From Escherichia phage T2: a DNA stretch of 64,000 nucleotides. A program made the translations under genes and the position numbers. The stretch is from the sequence record NC_054931.1. One strand, given 5' to 3'. The notes under the pieces are model-generated. The model did not search any database. It was given only the letters and a program-made list of their open reading frames with translations, and was not told the DNA's origin. Of this stretch, positions 1-7,937 are shown piece by piece. Each line of letters starts with the position of its first letter. Position 1 is the stretch's first letter.

Positions 1-331
1 CTTTCATTGACTCATTTTCAATATAAGACATGTAGCTATTATATTCCTTTAATTGTATTTTGTAATCCTTTTTTCTTTGCCAATTTATTTTAAAATTATC
101 ATAATGAAAATATAAAATGATACCAAAGAATGAAAACAATGAAATAATTTTAGTATAACAAAGCTCACTCCAAACTTCTGTTATATTTACTGTGCCGTCG
201 ATGTTTAAAATAAGACAGTCAATTAACAATCCAAAAAGACTACCCGCAAGAGCTGCAGCCAACGCCACAGCAAAAATTAAAAATGACTCAGAAAACGAAT
301 ATTTGACTTTATTTAGTTTTGGCTTTTGCAT
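1..331 (-). CDS. hypothetical small membrane protein, N-terminal part (gene runs off window start)
   Basis: ATG at 331 on minus strand opens a frame reaching position 1; translation MQKPKLNKVKYSFSESFLIFAVALAAALAGSLFGLL... has hydrophobic helices and a basic tail; not in ORF track because incomplete. Confidence 0.4.
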   Translation of the reverse strand, partial: MQKPKLNKVKYSFSESFLIFAVALAAALAGSLFGLLIDCLILNIDGTVNITEVWSELCYTKIISLFSFFGIILYFHYDNFKINWQRKKDYKIQLKEYNSYMSYIENESMK

Positions 332-726
332 CGTGATTCCTTAACAAATTTCATAATTTCATTAAATTCATACTCAGCTAGTTTAAGCTGGTGTTCCTTT
401 TTAATCTTTTTACAATGAGCTTTCCAATCGTGTACACGTTTACGATAATGTCTTCCTTGATACCAGTATCCTACCCAATTTACAGGTACTAATAAAAATG
501 GAACTACCAATGGAAGAGTTAGCATTAACATAATTATTACGCCAGATTCAATATCAGTCATAACATCTAAAACACCTCCAATAATCAATAGAATTACAAA
601 TGATATGAGTATCACAGGACCTATTAATACGTCAGTAGGAATTATCTGGCGCTTTAATTCATACTTCAAAGGTTTACTTGGAAGGTATAGTGATGGCTTT
701 GACATATTCTCTACATTCCTTAACAA
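313..726 (-). CDS. hypothetical membrane protein (two predicted TM helices, basic C-terminus)
   Basis: 137-aa track ORF; hydrophobic stretches VILISFVILLIIGGVL and VIIMLMLTLPLVVPFLLV; true start may be the internal Met (MSKPSLY). Confidence 0.5.
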   Translation of the reverse strand: MLRNVENMSKPSLYLPSKPLKYELKRQIIPTDVLIGPVILISFVILLIIGGVLDVMTDIESGVIIMLMLTLPLVVPFLLVPVNWVGYWYQGRHYRKRVHDWKAHCKKIKKEHQLKLAEYEFNEIMKFVKESRCKSQN

Positions 727-1282
727 ATTTTTCTAGTAATAAATCACTTTCAAAATTAGGATTTTTCACTAATTTATCAAAAAGACCATCAACAATAGTT
801 AAAATATTCTTTTTGCTAAGAATACGTTTATTTTCATGCTTCGTTTCAGAGTCAACTATAAGAGTAAAGAAATATTTCTTTCCCTGAAATTTTACCGTAG
901 TATCAATATAAAATAAATTTGACTTTTGTAAGTTACGTTTAAACCATGCGTCACTTAAACTATAAACACCGAGATAATCAAAATCGTCGTTTAAATAACA
1001 AACTGACCATTCAGGAGAAATGAAATCAGTAAATTCAACATCAAAATCACATGTCAATAAATGAATTGATTCAATATTGTTAATAAGTATTCCAGGACGT
1101 ATTAAAGACTTTTTACCTCTGGAAAATCTTCCAGAAAGACTTTCATCAGTTTCATATGAAGAACCCCAATAATAATTACGTCCTTCTGCCATACGTTTAA
1201 GAGCATTTAGTAATTGGTCTGGAACATCAACCTGTCTTTGGAACTCTTCAAACATTGAATTGAAATCACTTTGCATTTTCAT
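674..1282 (-). CDS. hypothetical protein, 202 aa
   Basis: Complete track ORF in early-gene orientation; no motif recognised by eye. Confidence 0.5.
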   Translation of the reverse strand: MKMQSDFNSMFEEFQRQVDVPDQLLNALKRMAEGRNYYWGSSYETDESLSGRFSRGKKSLIRPGILINNIESIHLLTCDFDVEFTDFISPEWSVCYLNDDFDYLGVYSLSDAWFKRNLQKSNLFYIDTTVKFQGKKYFFTLIVDSETKHENKRILSKKNILTIVDGLFDKLVKNPNFESDLLLEKFVKECREYVKAITIPSK

Positions 1283-1304
1283 TCCTATTTACTCCAAGTA
1301 ATAG

Positions 1305-1330
1305 GGGGCCGAAGCCCCTTATCATTATTT
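1305..1330. terminator. GC tetraloop hairpin GGGGC-CGAA-GCCCC with flanking T-rich tract
   Basis: Perfect 5-bp stem with CGAA loop at 1305-1318; same hairpin type recurs at other gene junctions in the window. Confidence 0.45.
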
Positions 1331-1918
1331 CAGAGAATTAATATATTCCTGAACATCGGCAGAGGTAGTTTCAACCCCAGAAATATTGCCATTAAAGGTT
1401 TCAACTCGAGCAAGAGTATCTTCAATATCAACCTTAGTCAGTGCTGCAATTTCAACTACATCATCAGCAGTACTAATTCCAAGGGCATTTGCTGCACGAG
1501 TTTCACGGATATATTCCAATTTAACTGCAAGTTCTTGGCGAGCATCATCTAACTCAACTACTTTCTTAGCGATTTCAATTCGCATTTCAGCATAACCATC
1601 AGCTTTAGTAGTCAGCTGTTCAGCTGTTCGACGATATAGCAAACCGAGTTTAGCATGCATTGTTACATCTTGACCTTCGGAAAGAAGCTTGCGAATTTCA
1701 CGCTCTTTTGATTCAGCCTGTTTATTCTTTTCAACAATAAGTTCACGAATACGTTTTTCTTCATTAATAGATTTAACAGAAGCAGTTTTTAGGTCTTTAA
1801 TTTTATCAAGCAGTTTTGCTGCTGCGGCAGTATACTGTTCTTCAACAGATAGATTTTTAGCCATAGCAGAACCAAGTTTAGTGCGAATAAACTCAACAAT
1901 TTTCTTCAGTGTGTTCAT
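1325..1918 (-). CDS. hypothetical alpha-helical coiled-coil protein (remote PspA/IM30-like appearance, unverified)
   Basis: 197-aa ORF; heptad-like charged/hydrophobic periodicity throughout, N-terminal amphipathic segment. Confidence 0.55.
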
Positions 1919-1961
1919 AGTATTTCCTTAGGTTAATTAAGATTTAAAATCCATGAGAGTA

Positions 1962-2138
1962 TTATACTCCGGATAGTTTGTAAACTATTTCAACATCGCC
2001 TTTTGCTGCTTTATAACCTTCAGCCCAAGATACAACCGAGTTTTTATCTGAAGATTCAAATTCTGGCATTGGGCTTTCGCCAATGTTCACGCAATATGTT
2101 TCTTCATTTTCGTCGAACCAAATAATTAAAGTAGTCAT
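1962..2138 (-). CDS. hypothetical small protein, 58 aa
   Basis: ATG at 2138 preceded by GGAGAAAT Shine-Dalgarno; translation MTTLIIWFDENEETYCVNIG...; below track size cutoff. Confidence 0.35.
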   Translation of the reverse strand: MTTLIIWFDENEETYCVNIGESPMPEFESSDKNSVVSWAEGYKAAKGDVEIVYKLSGV

Positions 2139-2207
2139 TTATTTCTCCGTTTCTGTATTTGTTTTTGATAAGTCTATAATAACACCGTCCTTGGTGTTTG
2201 TACACAA

Positions 2208-2483
2208 TTATTTCATATTATTGAAATATTCTTCTGCGATTTCGTCGTTATCATGGTAAACTTTAGAAGACAGTTTAACATAACCTTCAGCAGTGAACAT
2301 GTTAATCACGACCTTTACAGTATACCACTGACCATCTTCATTACCCATTACTGCGTAAGTTTCAAACATCGGATGGTCAGGACCGATAACTTTAATATCA
2401 TTCACTGTACGACCGAAATCTTCTGAAACACATTTCATAAAGAAGTTGAACAGTTCACCGTAATTATCCATTTTATTCTCCAA
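2208..2483 (-). CDS. hypothetical protein, 91 aa
   Basis: Track ORF; GGAGAATAAAATG ribosome-binding context; sits directly downstream of an early promoter. Confidence 0.5.
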   Translation of the reverse strand: MENKMDNYGELFNFFMKCVSEDFGRTVNDIKVIGPDHPMFETYAVMGNEDGQWYTVKVVINMFTAEGYVKLSSKVYHDNDEIAEEYFNNMK

Positions 2484-2511
2484 GTTGTTTTCTGTATCAG
2501 TAGTTGATAGT

Positions 2512-2546
2512 TGTATAGTACCATGGAAGAACAGGGATGTAAACAG
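2512..2546 (-). promoter_or_regulatory. T4-type early promoter (-35 GTTTAC, -10 TACTAT)
   Basis: Minus-strand GTTTAC at 2539-2544 with ~18-bp spacer to TACTAT; A-rich upstream; member of the repeated early-promoter family. Confidence 0.5.
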
Positions 2547-2682
2547 TTTTGTGAAAAAATTTTTAAAAAGTTTTAGGGAATTCTAGGGCGGGGAGGGGCA
2601 ATTAAAAGATAGGATAATATATTATAAAGGGTATAAACTAAATGATGCCTAGAGAGGTCTGGAAAGGCCTAGATACCAAAAA

Positions 2683-2715
2683 GCCCCAACCTTTCGGTCG
2701 GGGCTAAGCCTTGCG
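2683..2715 (-). terminator. rho-independent terminator at the end of the tRNA/stable-RNA operon
   Basis: Minus-strand hairpin AGCCCCGACC-GAAA-GGTTGGGGCT followed by TTTT. Confidence 0.6.
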
Positions 2716-2758
2716 GCAACCTTGTCGGGGTTCCACCTGCTAAGGCAAGTGTTTGTAC

Positions 2759-2913
2759 GAAACGCCGGGATTTGAACCCGGTTATTAAGTAGTTGACGCT
2801 ACTCAATATTTTTAAAAGGCCATATCTCGACCATATCCGAACGTTCCGTCAAAAACGCTACTCGGCTTACAGCAAAGATATTTCCTCGAATCGATAATTC
2901 GGTGCGCCGTTTC
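2759..2913 (-). ncRNA. tRNA-like structured stable RNA (candidate counterpart of T4 species 1/2 RNA, rnaC/rnaD)
   Basis: ~155 nt with no ORF; 5-prime and 3-prime ends pair as an acceptor-like stem (GAAACG/CGTTTC); T-arm-like CCGGG-TTCAAAT-CCCGG at the 3-prime end; lies inside the tRNA operon. Confidence 0.35.
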
Positions 2914-3011
2914 TGCTGTGATAGTAAAGAGCCAGAACACAGTAAAACTGTGGGAGGAACTATACTCCAGGGAACATCAGTCCGACGACTTACCGGTAGC
3001 GACCCGGTTTC

Positions 3012-3362
3012 TTAATATTCTTTTAAAGCATCAATCTGTTCACGGCGTTTACGCCATAAATCAATTGCTTCATACGCGGATTCAGCATTTCGAATTAGCC
3101 GGCATTTATGTAAAGACTTGTGATTTTGGTATTGTGTAGATAATGGAATTTTATCTAAAAGGTCTTTACGTTCAAAGTATTCGTAACCATCTAAACCAAA
3201 TGAACGATTTTTGAGAAATTGCCAATGCCTAAATTCGTTTTCGACATAAACATAGTCTGCATGCTGATAAAGCAAATTAATTACACGTTCAGAAATAACA
3301 GTGTCATTATGATTAAAATAGAATGTTAAATCATGAACGACTAAATAAACATTACCTTTCAT
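3012..3362 (-). CDS. hypothetical protein, 116 aa, within the tRNA operon
   Basis: Track ORF between tRNA-Arg and the stable RNA. Confidence 0.45.
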   Translation of the reverse strand: MKGNVYLVVHDLTFYFNHNDTVISERVINLLYQHADYVYVENEFRHWQFLKNRSFGLDGYEYFERKDLLDKIPLSTQYQNHKSLHKCRLIRNAESAYEAIDLWRKRREQIDALKEY

Positions 3363-3370
3363 ATTTTCCT

Positions 3371-3446
3371 CACTTATAATTGGTCGAGGCAGTAGGGATC
3401 GAACCTACGACCCAGGACTTAGAAGGTCCTTGCTCTTCCTTCTGAG
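3371..3446 (-). tRNA. tRNA-Arg (anticodon TCT)
   Basis: Hand-folded cloverleaf; 7-bp acceptor CGAGGCA/TGCCTCG; anticodon loop CTTCTAA; encoded CCA. Confidence 0.8.
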
Positions 3447-3450
3447 CTAT

Positions 3451-3525
3451 GCCTCGTATTTGGCGGACGTGATAGGATTCGAACCTATAACCAATCGCTT
3501 AACAGGCGATCGCTCTGCCATTGAG
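3451..3525 (-). tRNA. tRNA-Asn (anticodon GTT)
   Basis: Hand-folded cloverleaf with all four arms; anticodon loop CTGTTAA; T-loop TTCGAAT; encoded CCA. Confidence 0.7.
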
Positions 3526-3529
3526 CTAC

Positions 3530-3616
3530 ACATCCAAATTGGTGGGGAGTGATGGAGTCGAACCACCCGAGTCGCAATGACAATGAATTTACAGTCCACA
3601 CCGCTACCTCTACGGG
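3530..3616 (-). tRNA. tRNA-Tyr (anticodon GTA), long variable arm
   Basis: 87 nt; acceptor GGGGAGT/ACTCCCC; anticodon loop CTGTAAA; overall layout parallels E. coli tRNA-Tyr; encoded CCA. Confidence 0.65.
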
Positions 3617-3626
3617 ATAACTCCCC

Positions 3627-3701
3627 CAAATTAATTTGGTGGCCCTGGGTGGAATTGAACCACCATCTGGCGATTATGAGTCGCTTGCTTGAACCTTCCA
3701 G
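3627..3701 (-). tRNA. tRNA with CAT anticodon (elongator Met or lysidine-type Ile)
   Basis: Cloverleaf with acceptor GGCCCTG/CAGGGCC; anticodon loop CTCATAA; encoded CCA. Confidence 0.7.
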
Positions 3702-3719
3702 CTACAGGGCCAAATTTTC

Positions 3720-4124
3720 TTATTTTATGTAATATTTATTTAAAAACTTTCTAGCTTGAGTATGGCTAACATTTATAGCGTTTGCATAATTTTTAATAAA
3801 ACCTCGTTCATCCATATTAAAATTTTCTAATATTTTTAATCGTCTAGTTATCTCATCTTTGCTTAAGGTACTTGCATTATTTTTAGAAATTTTTTCTAAG
3901 GACTGTGCCGAGTGTTTTCGACCATTAAAATTAAAATTTTTAGATTTTGGAGGAAATCTATCATTTAGTCTCGCATCTTTTGTATTTTGATTATTAGTTG
4001 CGCAATATATGTTATTTAATGAATATGGTCCTTTATCACCGAAACGGCACATGCAGTATTCATGACCCTTTCTTCCACGCTTATCATATTTTCCCGTTGA
4101 TTTCCACCAATAGCCATTCATCAA
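3720..4124 (-). CDS. putative free-standing HNH-type endonuclease-like protein with C-terminal HTH-like tail
   Basis: 134-aa ORF in the gap between the two tRNA subclusters; N-terminal His/Cys/Asn-rich segment (GHEYCMCRFG...NNIYCATNNQN) resembles an HNH-type fold; C-terminal NYANAINVSHTQARKFL resembles a helix-turn-helix. Confidence 0.4.
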   Translation of the reverse strand: MMNGYWWKSTGKYDKRGRKGHEYCMCRFGDKGPYSLNNIYCATNNQNTKDARLNDRFPPKSKNFNFNGRKHSAQSLEKISKNNASTLSKDEITRRLKILENFNMDERGFIKNYANAINVSHTQARKFLNKYYIK

Positions 4125-4245
4125 AAGTTAAATTCCATTCAATGTTTCTACGTATAGCAGAATTCCGCTGAGAAATATTTTGCATAATCTTCTTTCATCA
4201 CAAATTTCTCTACTTATTCAATACACCGAGCTAAATCAGCAAAAC

Positions 4246-4335
4246 TGGCGGAGGCGATAGGATTTGAACCTATGAGTCGCCGGAGCGACTGCCGGTTTTC
4301 AAGACCGGTGCATTAAACCACTCTGCCACGCCTCC
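4246..4335 (-). tRNA. tRNA-Ser (anticodon TGA), long variable arm
   Basis: Sequence matches recalled T4 tRNA-Ser; anticodon loop CTTGAAA; directly abuts tRNA-Pro (Pro-Ser dimeric precursor as in T4). Confidence 0.85.
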
Positions 4336-4337
4336 AG

Positions 4338-4411
4338 TCTCCATACAAGGATTTGAACCTTGGACCTCCTGATCCCAAATCAGGCGCTCTACCAAACTGA
4401 GCTACACGGAG
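4338..4411 (-). tRNA. tRNA-Pro (anticodon TGG)
   Basis: Cloverleaf; anticodon loop TTTGGGA; CCA not encoded. Confidence 0.8.
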
Positions 4412-4421
4412 TAAATTAAAT

Positions 4422-4495
<74 letters not shown>

Positions 4496-4500
4496 AAATT

Positions 4501-4587
4501 TGGTGCGAGAAGTGGGACTCGAACCCACAAGGAAATCATTCCGCAGCATTTTAAGTGCTGTGCCTTTACCAATTTGACCATTCTCGC
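4501..4587 (-). tRNA. tRNA-Leu (anticodon TAA), long variable arm
   Basis: Matches recalled T4 tRNA-Leu (GCGAGAATGGTCAAATTGGTAAAGGCACAGCACTTAAAATGCTGCGG...); abuts tRNA-Gln. Confidence 0.9.
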
Positions 4588-4588
4588 G

Positions 4589-4661
4589 CTGGGAATAAAG
4601 GACTCGAACCTTTGCATCTAGCAGTCAAAGTTCTATGCCTTACCAACTTGGCTAATTCCCA
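4589..4661 (-). tRNA. tRNA-Gln (anticodon TTG)
   Basis: Cloverleaf; anticodon loop CTTTGAC; CCA not encoded; first gene of subcluster I. Confidence 0.8.
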
Positions 4662-4747
4662 ATTATTAACAAAGGCTCTCAAATAAGAACCCTTGATGAT
4701 AGAGGGTATTAATCAATGCGATATGAGTTAATAATAACAAATATTTC

Positions 4748-5263
4748 TTAAAGCAAATCAACCATTTTAACAGTCGGCAAAACAATTTCTTCTTCGATAT
4801 AAGCAAATTCTACATGTTCAACTACACGCAAGAAATCATATTCATAGTATTCAGAAGCATGACCAAGAATATCAATGAGGCCTTCAAATATCTTATTACC
4901 ATTCACAAAGAATAAGTCAAATACACGTTCTTCATCTTCTTCGGATTTATTACCAAGGTCAACTTCTATATCAAAGACCTTTTTAATGAATTCTGGATAA
5001 AGTTGGTCTGAGAACAGTCCTTCAACCAAATATTCATATATAAAAAGCTCTTGCTCGCTGAACAACCCATTACCACAATAACGGTCAGCTTTAGTGCTAG
5101 AATGACGACTCTTAAACTTCTTCAAAAGATATTTAAATTGTTGGAGCTCATGCTCTTCTACGCCAAACAGTGTTTTGGTTTTATAGTTATCACCATCATT
5201 TTCCCAGGTAGTGACATCAATTACGTAACCCTTAGGAATTGTGCTGCCTAAACGAATATACAT
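4748..5263 (-). CDS. hypothetical early protein, 171 aa, acidic
   Basis: Track ORF; third gene of a short early cassette. Confidence 0.5.
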   Translation of the reverse strand: MYIRLGSTIPKGYVIDVTTWENDGDNYKTKTLFGVEEHELQQFKYLLKKFKSRHSSTKADRYCGNGLFSEQELFIYEYLVEGLFSDQLYPEFIKKVFDIEVDLGNKSEEDEERVFDLFFVNGNKIFEGLIDILGHASEYYEYDFLRVVEHVEFAYIEEEIVLPTVKMVDLL

Positions 5264-5555: not shown

Positions 5556-5738
5556 TTAACCTTTAGAAATTTTATCCATAACGATAGCGATTAAACCAAT
5601 TAAAAATGCTACTACAAGTGAAAACACATTTTCTGCTGTAGTCAATAATCCGCATATAAATCCAACAAACATTGAAAAACTAAAAGCGGAAGCAGAAATT
5701 GCAATAGCAACATTTCGAATTAATTCACAACGTTTCAT
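5556..5738 (-). CDS. hypothetical small membrane protein, 60 aa (two hydrophobic helices)
   Basis: Track ORF; AIAISASAFSFSMFVGFICGLL and VFSLVVAFLIGLIAIV; first gene after an early promoter; GAGGAGAATAAAATG context. Confidence 0.5.
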   Translation of the reverse strand: MKRCELIRNVAIAISASAFSFSMFVGFICGLLTTAENVFSLVVAFLIGLIAIVMDKISKG

Positions 5739-5757
5739 TTTATTCTCCTCAGTAGTT

Positions 5758-5800
5758 GATAGGGTAATAATATCACCACCCTATCTAAAAGTAAACAGTT
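5758..5800 (-). promoter_or_regulatory. early promoter with overlapping stem-loop (PeSL-like cassette)
   Basis: Minus strand GTTTAC (5791-5796), 18-bp spacer, TATTAT; inverted repeat GATAGGG...CCCTATC (5758-5785) spans the -10 region. Confidence 0.5.
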
Positions 5801-5806
5801 TATAAA

Positions 5807-6115
5807 CTATTTTATTCCGCGTGATGCAATTGTATTCTGCCGTTTAGCACCAGTTTGTTTAAAGTCATGATTGTCGATTTGATCGGTACGAGCAACTCCG
5901 AATGATGATTTGATCTTAGCTTTAGATCCTTTAGTTATAGAAATAAACATCTCGGAAGCCCCTTTCTTAAAGTCCGAGGCGATTACTTCAACGCCGTTCT
6001 TAGCAAGTGACTTCAGAATTGCCTCTGCATACTCATCGTCAAGACTCGTCTGAGTATTAATAACGAATGTCTTTGGCGCAGCCGCTTCATTGATAAATTC
6101 TTTAAATGTTTTCAT
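5807..6115 (-). CDS. internal (head-packaged) protein with capsid targeting sequence
   Basis: 102 aa; N-terminus MKTFKEFINE-A matches T4 CTS consensus MKT(Y/F)(Q/K)EF plus I-x-E prohead protease cleavage motif; located in the IP locus next to 57B. Confidence 0.65.
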   Translation of the reverse strand: MKTFKEFINEAAAPKTFVINTQTSLDDEYAEAILKSLAKNGVEVIASDFKKGASEMFISITKGSKAKIKSSFGVARTDQIDNHDFKQTGAKRQNTIASRGIK

Positions 6116-6129
6116 TTTATTTTCCTAAT

Positions 6130-6165
6130 TAATTTTGATGAGGTAATAGTATCACAACTAAAACC
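6130..6165 (-). promoter_or_regulatory. T4-type early promoter (repeat copy)
   Basis: Minus strand GTTTAC (6159-6164), 18-bp spacer, TACTAT; ~70-bp cassette nearly identical to 6443-6514. Confidence 0.5.
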
Positions 6166-6187
6166 CTATGTAAACAACTTTGTGAAA

Positions 6188-6442
6188 TTATTTTAAATCT
6201 TCTAATCGTTTCTTCATCTTAGAACCGTTCTTAGCGATTTCGCCTGCATCAGAGCATAATGCTAAAAGCGCTTTAACTTTAGTTTGGTCTCCTTTAAAAG
6301 ATGAAGGATCAACAGCAGCAAGTTCTTTAATACGAGAGAAAAGACGCTCAGCTTCAGCTAAAGCCATTCCAAGTTTTACTTCCATACCATGGGAAGATTC
6401 AGTAATAGTAGTTTTTGTAGCAAACTCTTTGAAAGTTTTCAT
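6188..6442 (-). CDS. internal (head-packaged) protein with capsid targeting sequence
   Basis: 84 aa; N-terminus MKTFKEFATKTTITE-S: CTS consensus plus I-T-E cleavage motif; body unrelated to the neighbouring IP gene. Confidence 0.65.
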   Translation of the reverse strand: MKTFKEFATKTTITESSHGMEVKLGMALAEAERLFSRIKELAAVDPSSFKGDQTKVKALLALCSDAGEIAKNGSKMKKRLEDLK

Positions 6443-6463
6443 TTTATTTTCCTAATTAATTTT

Positions 6464-6502
6464 GATGAGATAATAGTATCACTACCTCATCAGTATGTAA
6501 AC
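6464..6502 (-). promoter_or_regulatory. early promoter with overlapping stem-loop (PeSL-like cassette)
   Basis: Minus strand GTTTAC (6497-6502), spacer, TACTAT inside inverted repeat GATGAG...CTCATC (6464-6491). Confidence 0.5.
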
Positions 6503-6514
6503 AACTTTGTGAAA

Positions 6515-7211
<697 letters not shown>

Positions 7212-7212
<1 letters not shown>

Positions 7213-7937
7213 TATAGTACCTTTAGTGTATTTTTAATTTTAGAAAAAAGTTCTTCAATAGAACCATCGTTTGTAATTACTAAATCGCCATCACGAATTG
7301 GCAATCCAGCTTCTGTAATATGTGTATCATTGGATTTTTGACCAGGACGAACTACATGAATTACTGTAGCACCCATCGCCCTAGCCGCATCCATTTCATG
7401 ATCTTGACGGGTATCAGGAACGATATAATAATCATAACCTGAGTTAAATTTATCAAGATAATCTAAAGCAAATAATTTTACCCAGTACATGCGGTCGAAG
7501 TTATTAACAATCAAATCCGTACCTAGGGCTTGCATCAGACGACGGACTGACCATTGATCTTCAATATTATTTATAACGTCAGTAATCTTGTTAAATGCTA
7601 CGAAATTAACTGATTCTTTTCCTTCGTCATCAAAAACAAACACACCTTTAATTGGGCTTTTACCATTAAGATAGCAAAATGCTTGTTCCATAATCGTGAT
7701 TACTTCTAATTTAGTCAGATTTAAATTAGTCTCACGATCATAGTCAATTCCTTCAAACTCTTTACGAGTTAAGCAAGGATAGTCAGTGTTTGCTGCAAAT
7801 ACTCCCCATGCATAAGCCAATGCATCCTTAATAGGACCAGCAAGTTGGTATTTAACTGCAGAATAATTGCTCATGATAAAATCAGCAGTAGTATCTTTTC
7901 CACTACGCTTTACACCACTTAAAAAGATTAGTTTCAT
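7212..7937 (-). CDS. 1: deoxynucleoside monophosphate kinase
   Basis: 241 aa from MKLIFLSGVKRSGKDT (P-loop); same length as T4 gp1; track ORF extends 13 codons upstream. Confidence 0.9.

Follow-up and report, generated by a model that had tools for sequence, protein, structure and literature searches.

The e.3–e.6 cluster of phage T2

The stretch of DNA analysed here (hereafter, the window) comprises 64,000 nucleotides of Escherichia phage T2 (sequence record NC_054931.1), and its left end, the first 4.2 kb of which matched phage T2 with 100% identity, is occupied by four consecutive minus-strand genes that the curated T2 record identifies as the orthologues of e.3, e.4, e.5 and e.6 of phage T4. 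Few viruses have been studied as much as T4 and T2, and about half of their genes are without a function; in T4, the annotation of e.3–e.6 goes no further than conserved hypothetical or predicted membrane protein, the genes having originally been deposited (T4 record L13089) under the names msp6, msp5, msp4 and msp3, respectively. The original prediction, made from the letters alone, had described this arrangement, the coordinates of which are confirmed in the curated record, and had found no match to T4 genes, a point on which it is now corrected. Because T4 e.3–e.6 have no known function, the orthology does not tie the cluster to a known non-membrane role. The four genes are:

e.3 (T4 msp6), <1..331, minus strand: 110 of 120 codons inside the window, the last 10 codons beyond its left edge
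e.4 (T4 msp5), 313..705, minus strand: 130 amino acids
e.5 (T4 msp4), 674..1282, minus strand: 202 amino acids
e.6 (T4 msp3), 1325..1918, minus strand: 197 amino acids

When the window is extended leftwards, e.3 is complete at L001:2969-3331 (120 codons). To the left of the cluster, that is, downstream, lie nudE and then the lysozyme gene e; to the right, upstream, lie an open reading frame (ORF) of 58 amino acids, e.8 and the tRNA cluster. Single-sequence scans of the four proteins against Pfam, PHROGs, NCBIfam and PADLOC assigned a function to none of them, and no anti-phage defence profile of PADLOC was matched by any of the four.

Homology of e.6 to PspA, Vipp1 and ESCRT-III

The e.6 protein, which is 100% identical in T2 and T4, is very probably a diverged phage member of the PspA/Vipp1(IM30)/ESCRT-III superfamily, as judged from sequence profiles and a predicted structure. 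A faint PspA/IM30 likeness had been noted by eye in the original prediction, and it was upheld at the levels of profile, profile-profile and structural comparison. The compact e.6 family forms 45 clusters at the 50% identity level, each of about 200 amino acids, and a 40-member family profile searched against the PDB recovers Synechocystis Vipp1 chains (E 8.2e-5 to 1e-3) in a colinear alignment, residues 1–146 against 1–147, with the hairpin tip in register. Distant e.6 relatives start with MGILSRIKEF or MSIFQRLKSIF, which closely resembles MGIFSRFADIV in PspA and MGLFDRLGRVV in Vipp1. When compared by hhalign with an alignment of PspA and Vipp1, the e.6 family gave a 90.3% probability (E 1.5e-6; 168 columns, 13% identity), and the match extended into the alpha5 region, where ARVETFN stands against ARFESFE; the PspA alignment was of low diversity, a search of genome contigs with E. 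coli PspA having yielded only relatives with at least 83% identity, and against a single PspA sequence the hhalign probability was only 22%. Furthermore, two e.6 relatives, P0083 (39.0 bits) and P0080 (35.1 bits), score above the gathering cut-off of the PspA family PF04012 (33.9); both match a profile of close e.6 relatives only (E 6e-20 and 2e-21). A phmmer search of the PDB with P0083 gave no match, and searching proteins with the deep alignment of e.6 brought back this family alone, with no bona fide PspA.

The AlphaFold2 (AF2) model of e.6 is entirely helical, in agreement with the original prediction, and its confidence over the hairpin is high (predicted local distance difference test, pLDDT, 81–94). 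The predicted helices span residues 2–22 (alpha0), 25–80 and 86–145 (the hairpin), and 155–161, 166–175 and 186–196 (all three short), so that the model shows the ESCRT-III fold, in which equivalents of alpha4 and alpha5 come after a long alpha1-alpha2/3 hairpin. In a Foldseek search of the PDB with this model, the best eight matches are all Vipp1 (probability 1.00), and those that come next include CdvB2 and PspA; the TM-scores are 0.44–0.54 and the root-mean-square deviation (rmsd) is large, as would be expected given that the solved protomers are open polymer conformations. Among the BFVD matches are an Snf7 protein from Megaviridae and, from Acinetobacter phage ME3, a ‘PspA/IM30 family protein’. 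The hairpin is both the best conserved and the best modelled part of e.6. The hydrophobic moment of alpha0 is 0.45, with a net charge of +3 (PspA, 0.42; Vipp1, 0.57), a moment reached by 6.8% of shuffled alpha0 sequences, and the pLDDT of this helix is low; Kyte-Doolittle analysis reveals no hydrophobic segment of transmembrane length in e.6. At the other end of the protein, residues 185–197 (window 1325..1360) form a conserved terminal amphipathic helix in which Y192 is nearly invariant across the family; its hydrophobic spacing and final Lys presumably resemble ESCRT-III MIM1 tails, a likeness that we take as a lead only.

Given the predicted fold, e.6 invites comparison with E. coli PspA and Synechocystis Vipp1 (PF04012), with which it would share the N-terminal amphipathic helix, the alpha1-alpha2/3 hairpin with its tip around residue 82, and the alpha4/alpha5 equivalents. 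With its 197 amino acids, against 222 and 267, e.6 is the shortest of the three and lacks the C-terminal extension of Vipp1. Unlike these proteins, it is the product of a virulent phage, is transcribed early and, as a single sequence, lies below Pfam detection, and no homologue of PspF, PspB or PspC is found near it. The ESCRT-III proteins of eukaryotes, archaea and giant viruses (Snf7, CdvB2) match e.6 at the level of the fold, more weakly than Vipp1 does, and there is no Vps4/MIT machinery in the T2 system.

Homologues of e.6 were found in 1105 of 50,697 phage records, including Tequatrovirus, Mosigvirus, Karamvirus, Aeromonas and Klebsiella T4-like phages and others. T2 e.6 belongs to phrog_1203, which also holds members from Ackermannviridae, and it is the Ackermannviridae, such as Vi01, that make up the branch passing PF04012. 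These members (Vi01, SeF3a, Zahir) resemble T-even e.6 in size (about 200 amino acids), in full-length alignment and in being followed by a gene for a membrane protein, while differing from it in being only 22–26% identical to it and in passing PF04012. One contig, L003, encodes a PspA-like protein 78% identical to that of Vi01, and therefore most likely derives from an Ackermannviridae phage, so that an earlier T4-like reading of it was dropped. In the record of Salmonella phage SeF3a, a phrog_1203 member labelled ‘shock protein A’ is followed by a gene labelled ‘membrane protein’; PspA-like genes of phages are, thus, already visible in databases. In the literature, we found no paper that links T4 or T2 e.6 to PspA or discusses phage PspA-like genes; one apparent link between e.6 and PspA was traced to the promoter name ‘Pspank’. 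No viral members are mentioned in a survey devoted to the PSP (phage shock protein) system or in a review of ESCRT-III, and full-text searches retrieved no phage-encoded PspA.

Several records of e.6 itself call for comment. In phage RB43 (L006, 3360..3947), the e.6 frame is interrupted by stops near its 5' end and only a remnant of 97 amino acids is annotated, reflecting either a pseudogene or a sequencing error. Many records call e.6 a ‘host specificity protein’, a label for which this analysis finds no support, and one names it ‘recombination endonuclease subunit D12’.

The neighbouring proteins and a common C-terminal tail

The two small proteins, e.3 and e.4, are predicted to be inner-membrane proteins with two transmembrane helices each. 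In Kyte-Doolittle windows, the hydrophobic segments lie at about 16–46 and 57–75 in e.3 and at about 24–47 and 54–77 in e.4, in agreement with the original prediction of two helices and a basic tail; both proteins combine a K/R-rich N-terminus with a K/R-rich tail of about 45–50 amino acids, and by the positive-inside rule both ends would be cytoplasmic. The original prediction also took them for paralogues. This remains plausible and is moderately supported by sequence comparison: e.3 matches the PHROG of e.4 along almost the whole of its length (E 1e-3), and hhalign of the two small family profiles gives E 3.8e-5 with a probability of 44%, but pairwise BLASTP (E 0.014) aligns the tails only, and in single-sequence phmmer searches of the T2 six-frame ORFs each protein finds only itself. 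In the phage records, e.4 was found in 642 and e.3 in 604, and both evolve much faster than e.6, with identities among Tequatroviruses of 80–90% against at least 98% for e.6. What looks like a short relative of e.3 is present in T4 (L13089; L005, 3223..3414), where an unannotated ORF of 63 amino acids between e.2 (msp7) and nudE (msp8) encodes a single transmembrane helix and a basic tail with the C-terminal end NNFITECRKLK; T2 has neither e.2 nor this ORF.

The combination of a PspA-type protein with small membrane proteins recalls known bacterial systems. In LiaH-LiaI of Bacillus subtilis and PspA-PspB/PspC of E. coli, a PspA-type effector is encoded beside small membrane proteins that recruit the effector to the membrane (PMC11237479). 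The likeness of LiaI, PspB and PspC to e.3 and e.4 lies in architecture alone (small size, transmembrane segments and a basic cytoplasmic tail), with no similarity of sequence, and recruitment by e.3/e.4 is, by this analogy, putative; moreover, the T2 cluster, unlike the Lia and Psp systems, contains no transcriptional regulator. Within the T-even phages themselves, Imm and Sp (superinfection exclusion) and rI and t (lysis control) are small early membrane proteins that alter the envelope, as e.3 and e.4 might. They are encoded at other loci, however, and show no detectable similarity in the T2 ORFeome; in phmmer searches of all T2 six-frame ORFs, neither e.3 nor e.4 resembled t, rI, imm or imm.1.

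The third neighbour, e.5, had been described as a protein of 202 amino acids without recognisable motifs, and indeed it has no family in NCBIfam, PADLOC or the Pfam copy that was scanned, which lacked PF26876, the accession that e.5 homologues bear in precomputed Pfam annotation. It contains no hydrophobic segment of transmembrane length by Kyte-Doolittle analysis, and its AF2 model (pLDDT 59.6; predicted TM-score 0.59) consists of an alpha/beta core and two C-terminal helices, the last of which bears the tail motif described below; as modelled, e.5 is a soluble alpha/beta protein without a confident fold match. The best 13 Foldseek matches of this low-confidence model are all small alarmone synthetases (RelP/RelQ, RSH), at E ~1e-2, probability at most 0.35 and TM-scores of 0.13–0.18. 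There is no match of e.5 to the Pfam RelA_SpoT family, and we consider these similarities too weak to use other than as a lead. Like e.4, e.5 was found in 642 phage records.

What connects these otherwise dissimilar proteins is a short C-terminal motif, F-[IV]-x-x-C-[KR], usually following hydrophobic-E/K-x, and this link between the genes adjacent to e.6 is previously unreported. The e.5 protein ends with LEKFVKECREYVKAITIPSK, within a block (L181-K195) that is invariant across the e.5 family and includes LEKFVKECR; the complete e.3 ends with MKEFVSDCRKLK, just left of the window; and the basic tail of e.4 ends in a shifted variant, MKFVKESRCKSQN. In phage RB69, the tails are LEQFIMECREYV (e.5) and IENFIKECRK (e.3), and the motif is also present in RB43 ORF268, POP12_124 and Aes012_055, all 3' of e.6. 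In the Karamvirus PG7, it occurs in three tandem proteins with two transmembrane helices each (PG7_135, 134 and 133) and in two soluble ORFs, and in T4 the 63-amino-acid ORF between e.2 and nudE has it as well, within NNFITECRKLK. The genes 3' of e.6 differ between T4-like genera, many of them still bearing the e.3/e.5 tail motif, and outside the motif most of the proteins that bear it are not homologous to each other. We considered whether e.5 might be a global homologue of the proteins 3' of e.6 in RB43, POP12, Aes012 and PG7, and rejected this, the tail alone being matched. The downstream membrane proteins of the Ackermannviridae, unlike e.3, lack the motif. The motif sites, together with an exact 16-nucleotide repeat, ATTCCTTAACAAATTT (on the minus strand, AAATTTGTTAAGGAAT), that coincides with two of the tails, are:

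710..736, minus strand: codons of the e.5 tail motif L-E-K-F-V-K-E-C-R, from six-frame motif scans
window 710-736 and 325-348; L001:2998-3007; PG7 (L009) 5661-7446; RB69 (L097) 2489-3793: motif sites
L006 (RB43) 4793; L007 4946; L008 4902: further motif sites
715..730: copy 1 of the 16-nucleotide repeat, in the e.5 tail, encoding KFVKE
336..351: copy 2 of the repeat, within the tail of e.4, just upstream of where e.3 starts

All six reading frames of the complete T2 genome, taken as ORFs of 40 amino acids or more (118,447 residues), contain the motif four times, in two real genes, e.3 and e.5, and in two short antisense ORFs, and the e.4 variant is unique. In the 73.4 kb of PG7 that were scanned (42% of its genome), five of six occurrences fall within about 3 kb downstream of e.6, each 3–15 residues from a C-terminus, and our own binomial estimate for such clustering by chance is of the order of 1e-6. 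Copy 1 of the repeat bears the AAGGA Shine-Dalgarno sequence of the overlapping e.4.

Expression, proposed role and surroundings of the cluster

The genes e.5 and e.4 overlap by 32 nucleotides, and e.4 and e.3 by 19; these overlaps, which lie 3' of a hairpin that follows e.6, suggest that e.5, e.4 and e.3 might form a unit of coupled translation. The signals noted around e.6 are:

1305..1318, minus strand: GGGGC-UUCG-GCCCC hairpin between e.6 and e.5; the same stem-loop is listed as putative in T4 L13089
2176..2204, minus strand: nearest sigma-70-type promoter-like site upstream of T2 e.6, TGTACA-17-TATTAT with TG, ahead of the 58-amino-acid ORF

An intrinsic terminator can be rejected for the hairpin, which is not followed by a U tract and has an unremarkable folding energy (z = -1.5); it is more likely an RNA-stability or processing hairpin. 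In T4, an early promoter, GTTTACA-17-TATTAT, immediately precedes e.6. In T2, where the e.7 region has been swapped (window 1962..2138 and 1919..1990), the -35 element GTTTACA is kept and the spacer is shortened to 12–13 nucleotides, so that a promoter directly upstream of T2 e.6 was rejected. The position of T4 e.7 is occupied in T2 by an RB69ORF145c-like gene of 58 amino acids (window 1962..2138). In T4-infected cells, the RNAs of e.3–e.6 are all early and all four proteins have been seen by mass spectrometry, with e.4 and e.5 appearing early, e.6 in the middle period and e.3 late (PMC9697503). A CRISPRi-ART screen of T4 scored e.3–e.6 as ‘Not Fit’, that is, without a measurable fitness effect in standard culture, and listed their prior essentiality as unknown (PMC11879866), a result that fits the expectation for a conditional accessory function.

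The homology of e.6 to PspA and the predicted membrane location of e.3 and e.4 make a membrane-associated role, as the original prediction had proposed, a reasonable inference, one that does not discriminate between the superinfection exclusion, lysis timing and membrane maintenance that could underlie it. We read the cluster as a phage-encoded, Psp-like membrane-protection module, an interpretation that appears to us about evenly balanced between right and wrong: its firm component is the homology of e.6, whereas what we infer is the function, together with docking as the role of the tail motif. Within minutes of infection, T4-type phages silence transcription by the host, so that the host psp response could not be induced, and the phage would, accordingly, supply a PspA-like protein of its own early on. 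The e.6 protein, made early, would attach to the inner membrane on its cytoplasmic side and polymerise there, and the polymer would limit proton leakage during insults that the phage causes or meets, among which DNA injection, superinfection, holin accumulation in lysis inhibition and membrane-attacking abortive-infection (Abi) effectors are candidates. More speculatively, the common C-terminal helix, hydrophobic-E-x-F-[IV]-x-x-C-[KR], might dock e.3, e.4 and e.5 to a shared partner, most economically e.6 itself, with e.3 and e.4 conceivably serving as anchors or recruiters in the manner of PspB/PspC or LiaI, while e.5 might be a regulator or cargo. In its fullest form, this would be a self-contained viral Psp-like system, in which an e.6 polymer is combined with changeable anchors and clients plugged in by the tail docking helix, keeping the membrane energised, for instance, against depolarising Abi effectors or superinfection damage; that full form seems to us rather doubtful. 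If the proposal is true, virulent phages that silence host expression bring along their own ‘phage shock protein’. In any case, the assignment of e.6 turns a ‘conserved hypothetical protein’, often mislabelled as a ‘host specificity protein’, into a hypothesis of membrane biology, for a family that spans Straboviridae and Ackermannviridae, many therapeutic phages included, and that is present in at least 1105 of the 50,697 sequenced phage genomes, and the tail motif provides a concrete handle for a search for partners of this family.

A number of observations weigh against a protective module of this kind. The homology on which it builds is visible only at the profile or structure level: as a single sequence, T2 e.6 leaves PF04012 unmatched even at E <= 1 and produces in Pfam nothing except weak coiled-coil noise. 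Neither e.3 nor e.4 matches the PspB, PspC or LiaI-LiaF-TM models of Pfam or NCBIfam. Many phages have e.6 without e.3–e.5, so that e.6 does not need them. Part of the motif similarity within T2 consists of the 16-nucleotide repeat, which doubles as the ribosome-binding site of the next gene; tandem duplication explains some of this similarity without docking, and the motif controls covered the whole genome for T2, 42% of it for PG7 and the e.6 neighbourhoods for the other phages. The noise of the single-sequence scan, together with the modest TM-scores and large rmsd of the Foldseek matches, could even be taken to mean that e.6 is a generic coiled coil, the PspA likeness of which is compositional. 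This we find barely credible: three comparisons made independently all align colinearly starting at residue 1, the first eight Foldseek ranks all go to Vipp1, with thousands of other helical proteins behind it, and members of the family exceed a curated Pfam cut-off.

More weight attaches to the idea that the neighbourhood is a loose one, in which e.6 works alone, e.3–e.5 are unrelated accessory genes that belong to a hyperplastic region (membrane proteins for superinfection exclusion or anti-defence, for example), and the motif stems from tandem duplication and cassette shuffling. The unequal record counts (1105 for e.6, 642 each for e.5 and e.4, 604 for e.3), the variation of the downstream genes from genus to genus, the lower conservation of e.3 and e.4 compared with e.6 among Tequatroviruses and the exact repeat at the e.5/e.4 and e.4/e.3 junctions all fit this idea, and the counts and the variation downstream also leave the original view of a single four-gene module only partly standing, on the strength of the common tail motif. 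Yet the motif persists in proteins without detectable body homology, in phages of Aeromonas, Pectobacterium and Enterobacter, where it lies 3–32 residues from the stop codon at a variable spacing to the next gene; duplication together with a Shine-Dalgarno sequence does not explain it there, and its persistence at varying distances points to selection on the peptide. Its restriction to the stretch adjacent to e.6 in T2 and PG7 is likewise hard to obtain by chance, and, on the whole, we regard a loose neighbourhood as possible without being probable. It is also conceivable that e.6 is a viral mimic that disturbs the host Psp system, co-polymerising with PspA or binding PspF or PspBC and, thereby, blocking or redirecting the envelope-stress response. 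The host E. coli does carry pspFABCDE, and the best-conserved and best-modelled part of e.6 is the hairpin region of PspA self-assembly and partner contacts; however, psp induction would already be prevented by the host shut-off of T4-type phages, e.6 has diverged from PspA to an extreme degree (13% identity by hhalign) and the family is kept in phages of many hosts, all of which renders mimicry decidedly unlikely. We give still less credence to a lysis-timing device, in which the part of holin-, antiholin- or pinholin-like proteins would fall to e.3 and e.4 while e.6 buffers the membrane until lysis. The location of the cluster just upstream of nudE and e, the two transmembrane helices in each small protein and the late accumulation of the T4 e.3 protein would suit such a device, but the T-even holin t and antiholin rI have their genes at other sites and bear no resemblance to e.3 or e.4, the RNAs of the cluster are early, and knock-down leaves fitness unchanged.

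Some features of the surroundings deserve mention in their own right. In the T2 record AP018813.1 (L002; window 1..4200), gross errors of annotation transfer have turned e.4 into a ‘major capsid protein’, e.8 into a ‘nuclease’ and trna.1 into a ‘tail sheath monomer’. Further upstream, 540 bp (window 2472..3011) hold no annotated gene or long ORF, and we take the small stable RNAs rnaC and rnaD of T4 to lie near this stretch; a Rfam scan of window positions 1-5000 reported tRNAs only, with no family at threshold for 2472..3011. Within the same interval lies a strong terminator-like hairpin (2705..2682, minus strand) with a 10 bp stem, a GAAA loop and a U tract. Finally, the tRNA with anticodon CAT at 3637..3711 is classified by ARAGORN as tRNA-Met and in some records as tRNA-Ile, and the curated T2 record describes it as ‘CAU probably modified’.

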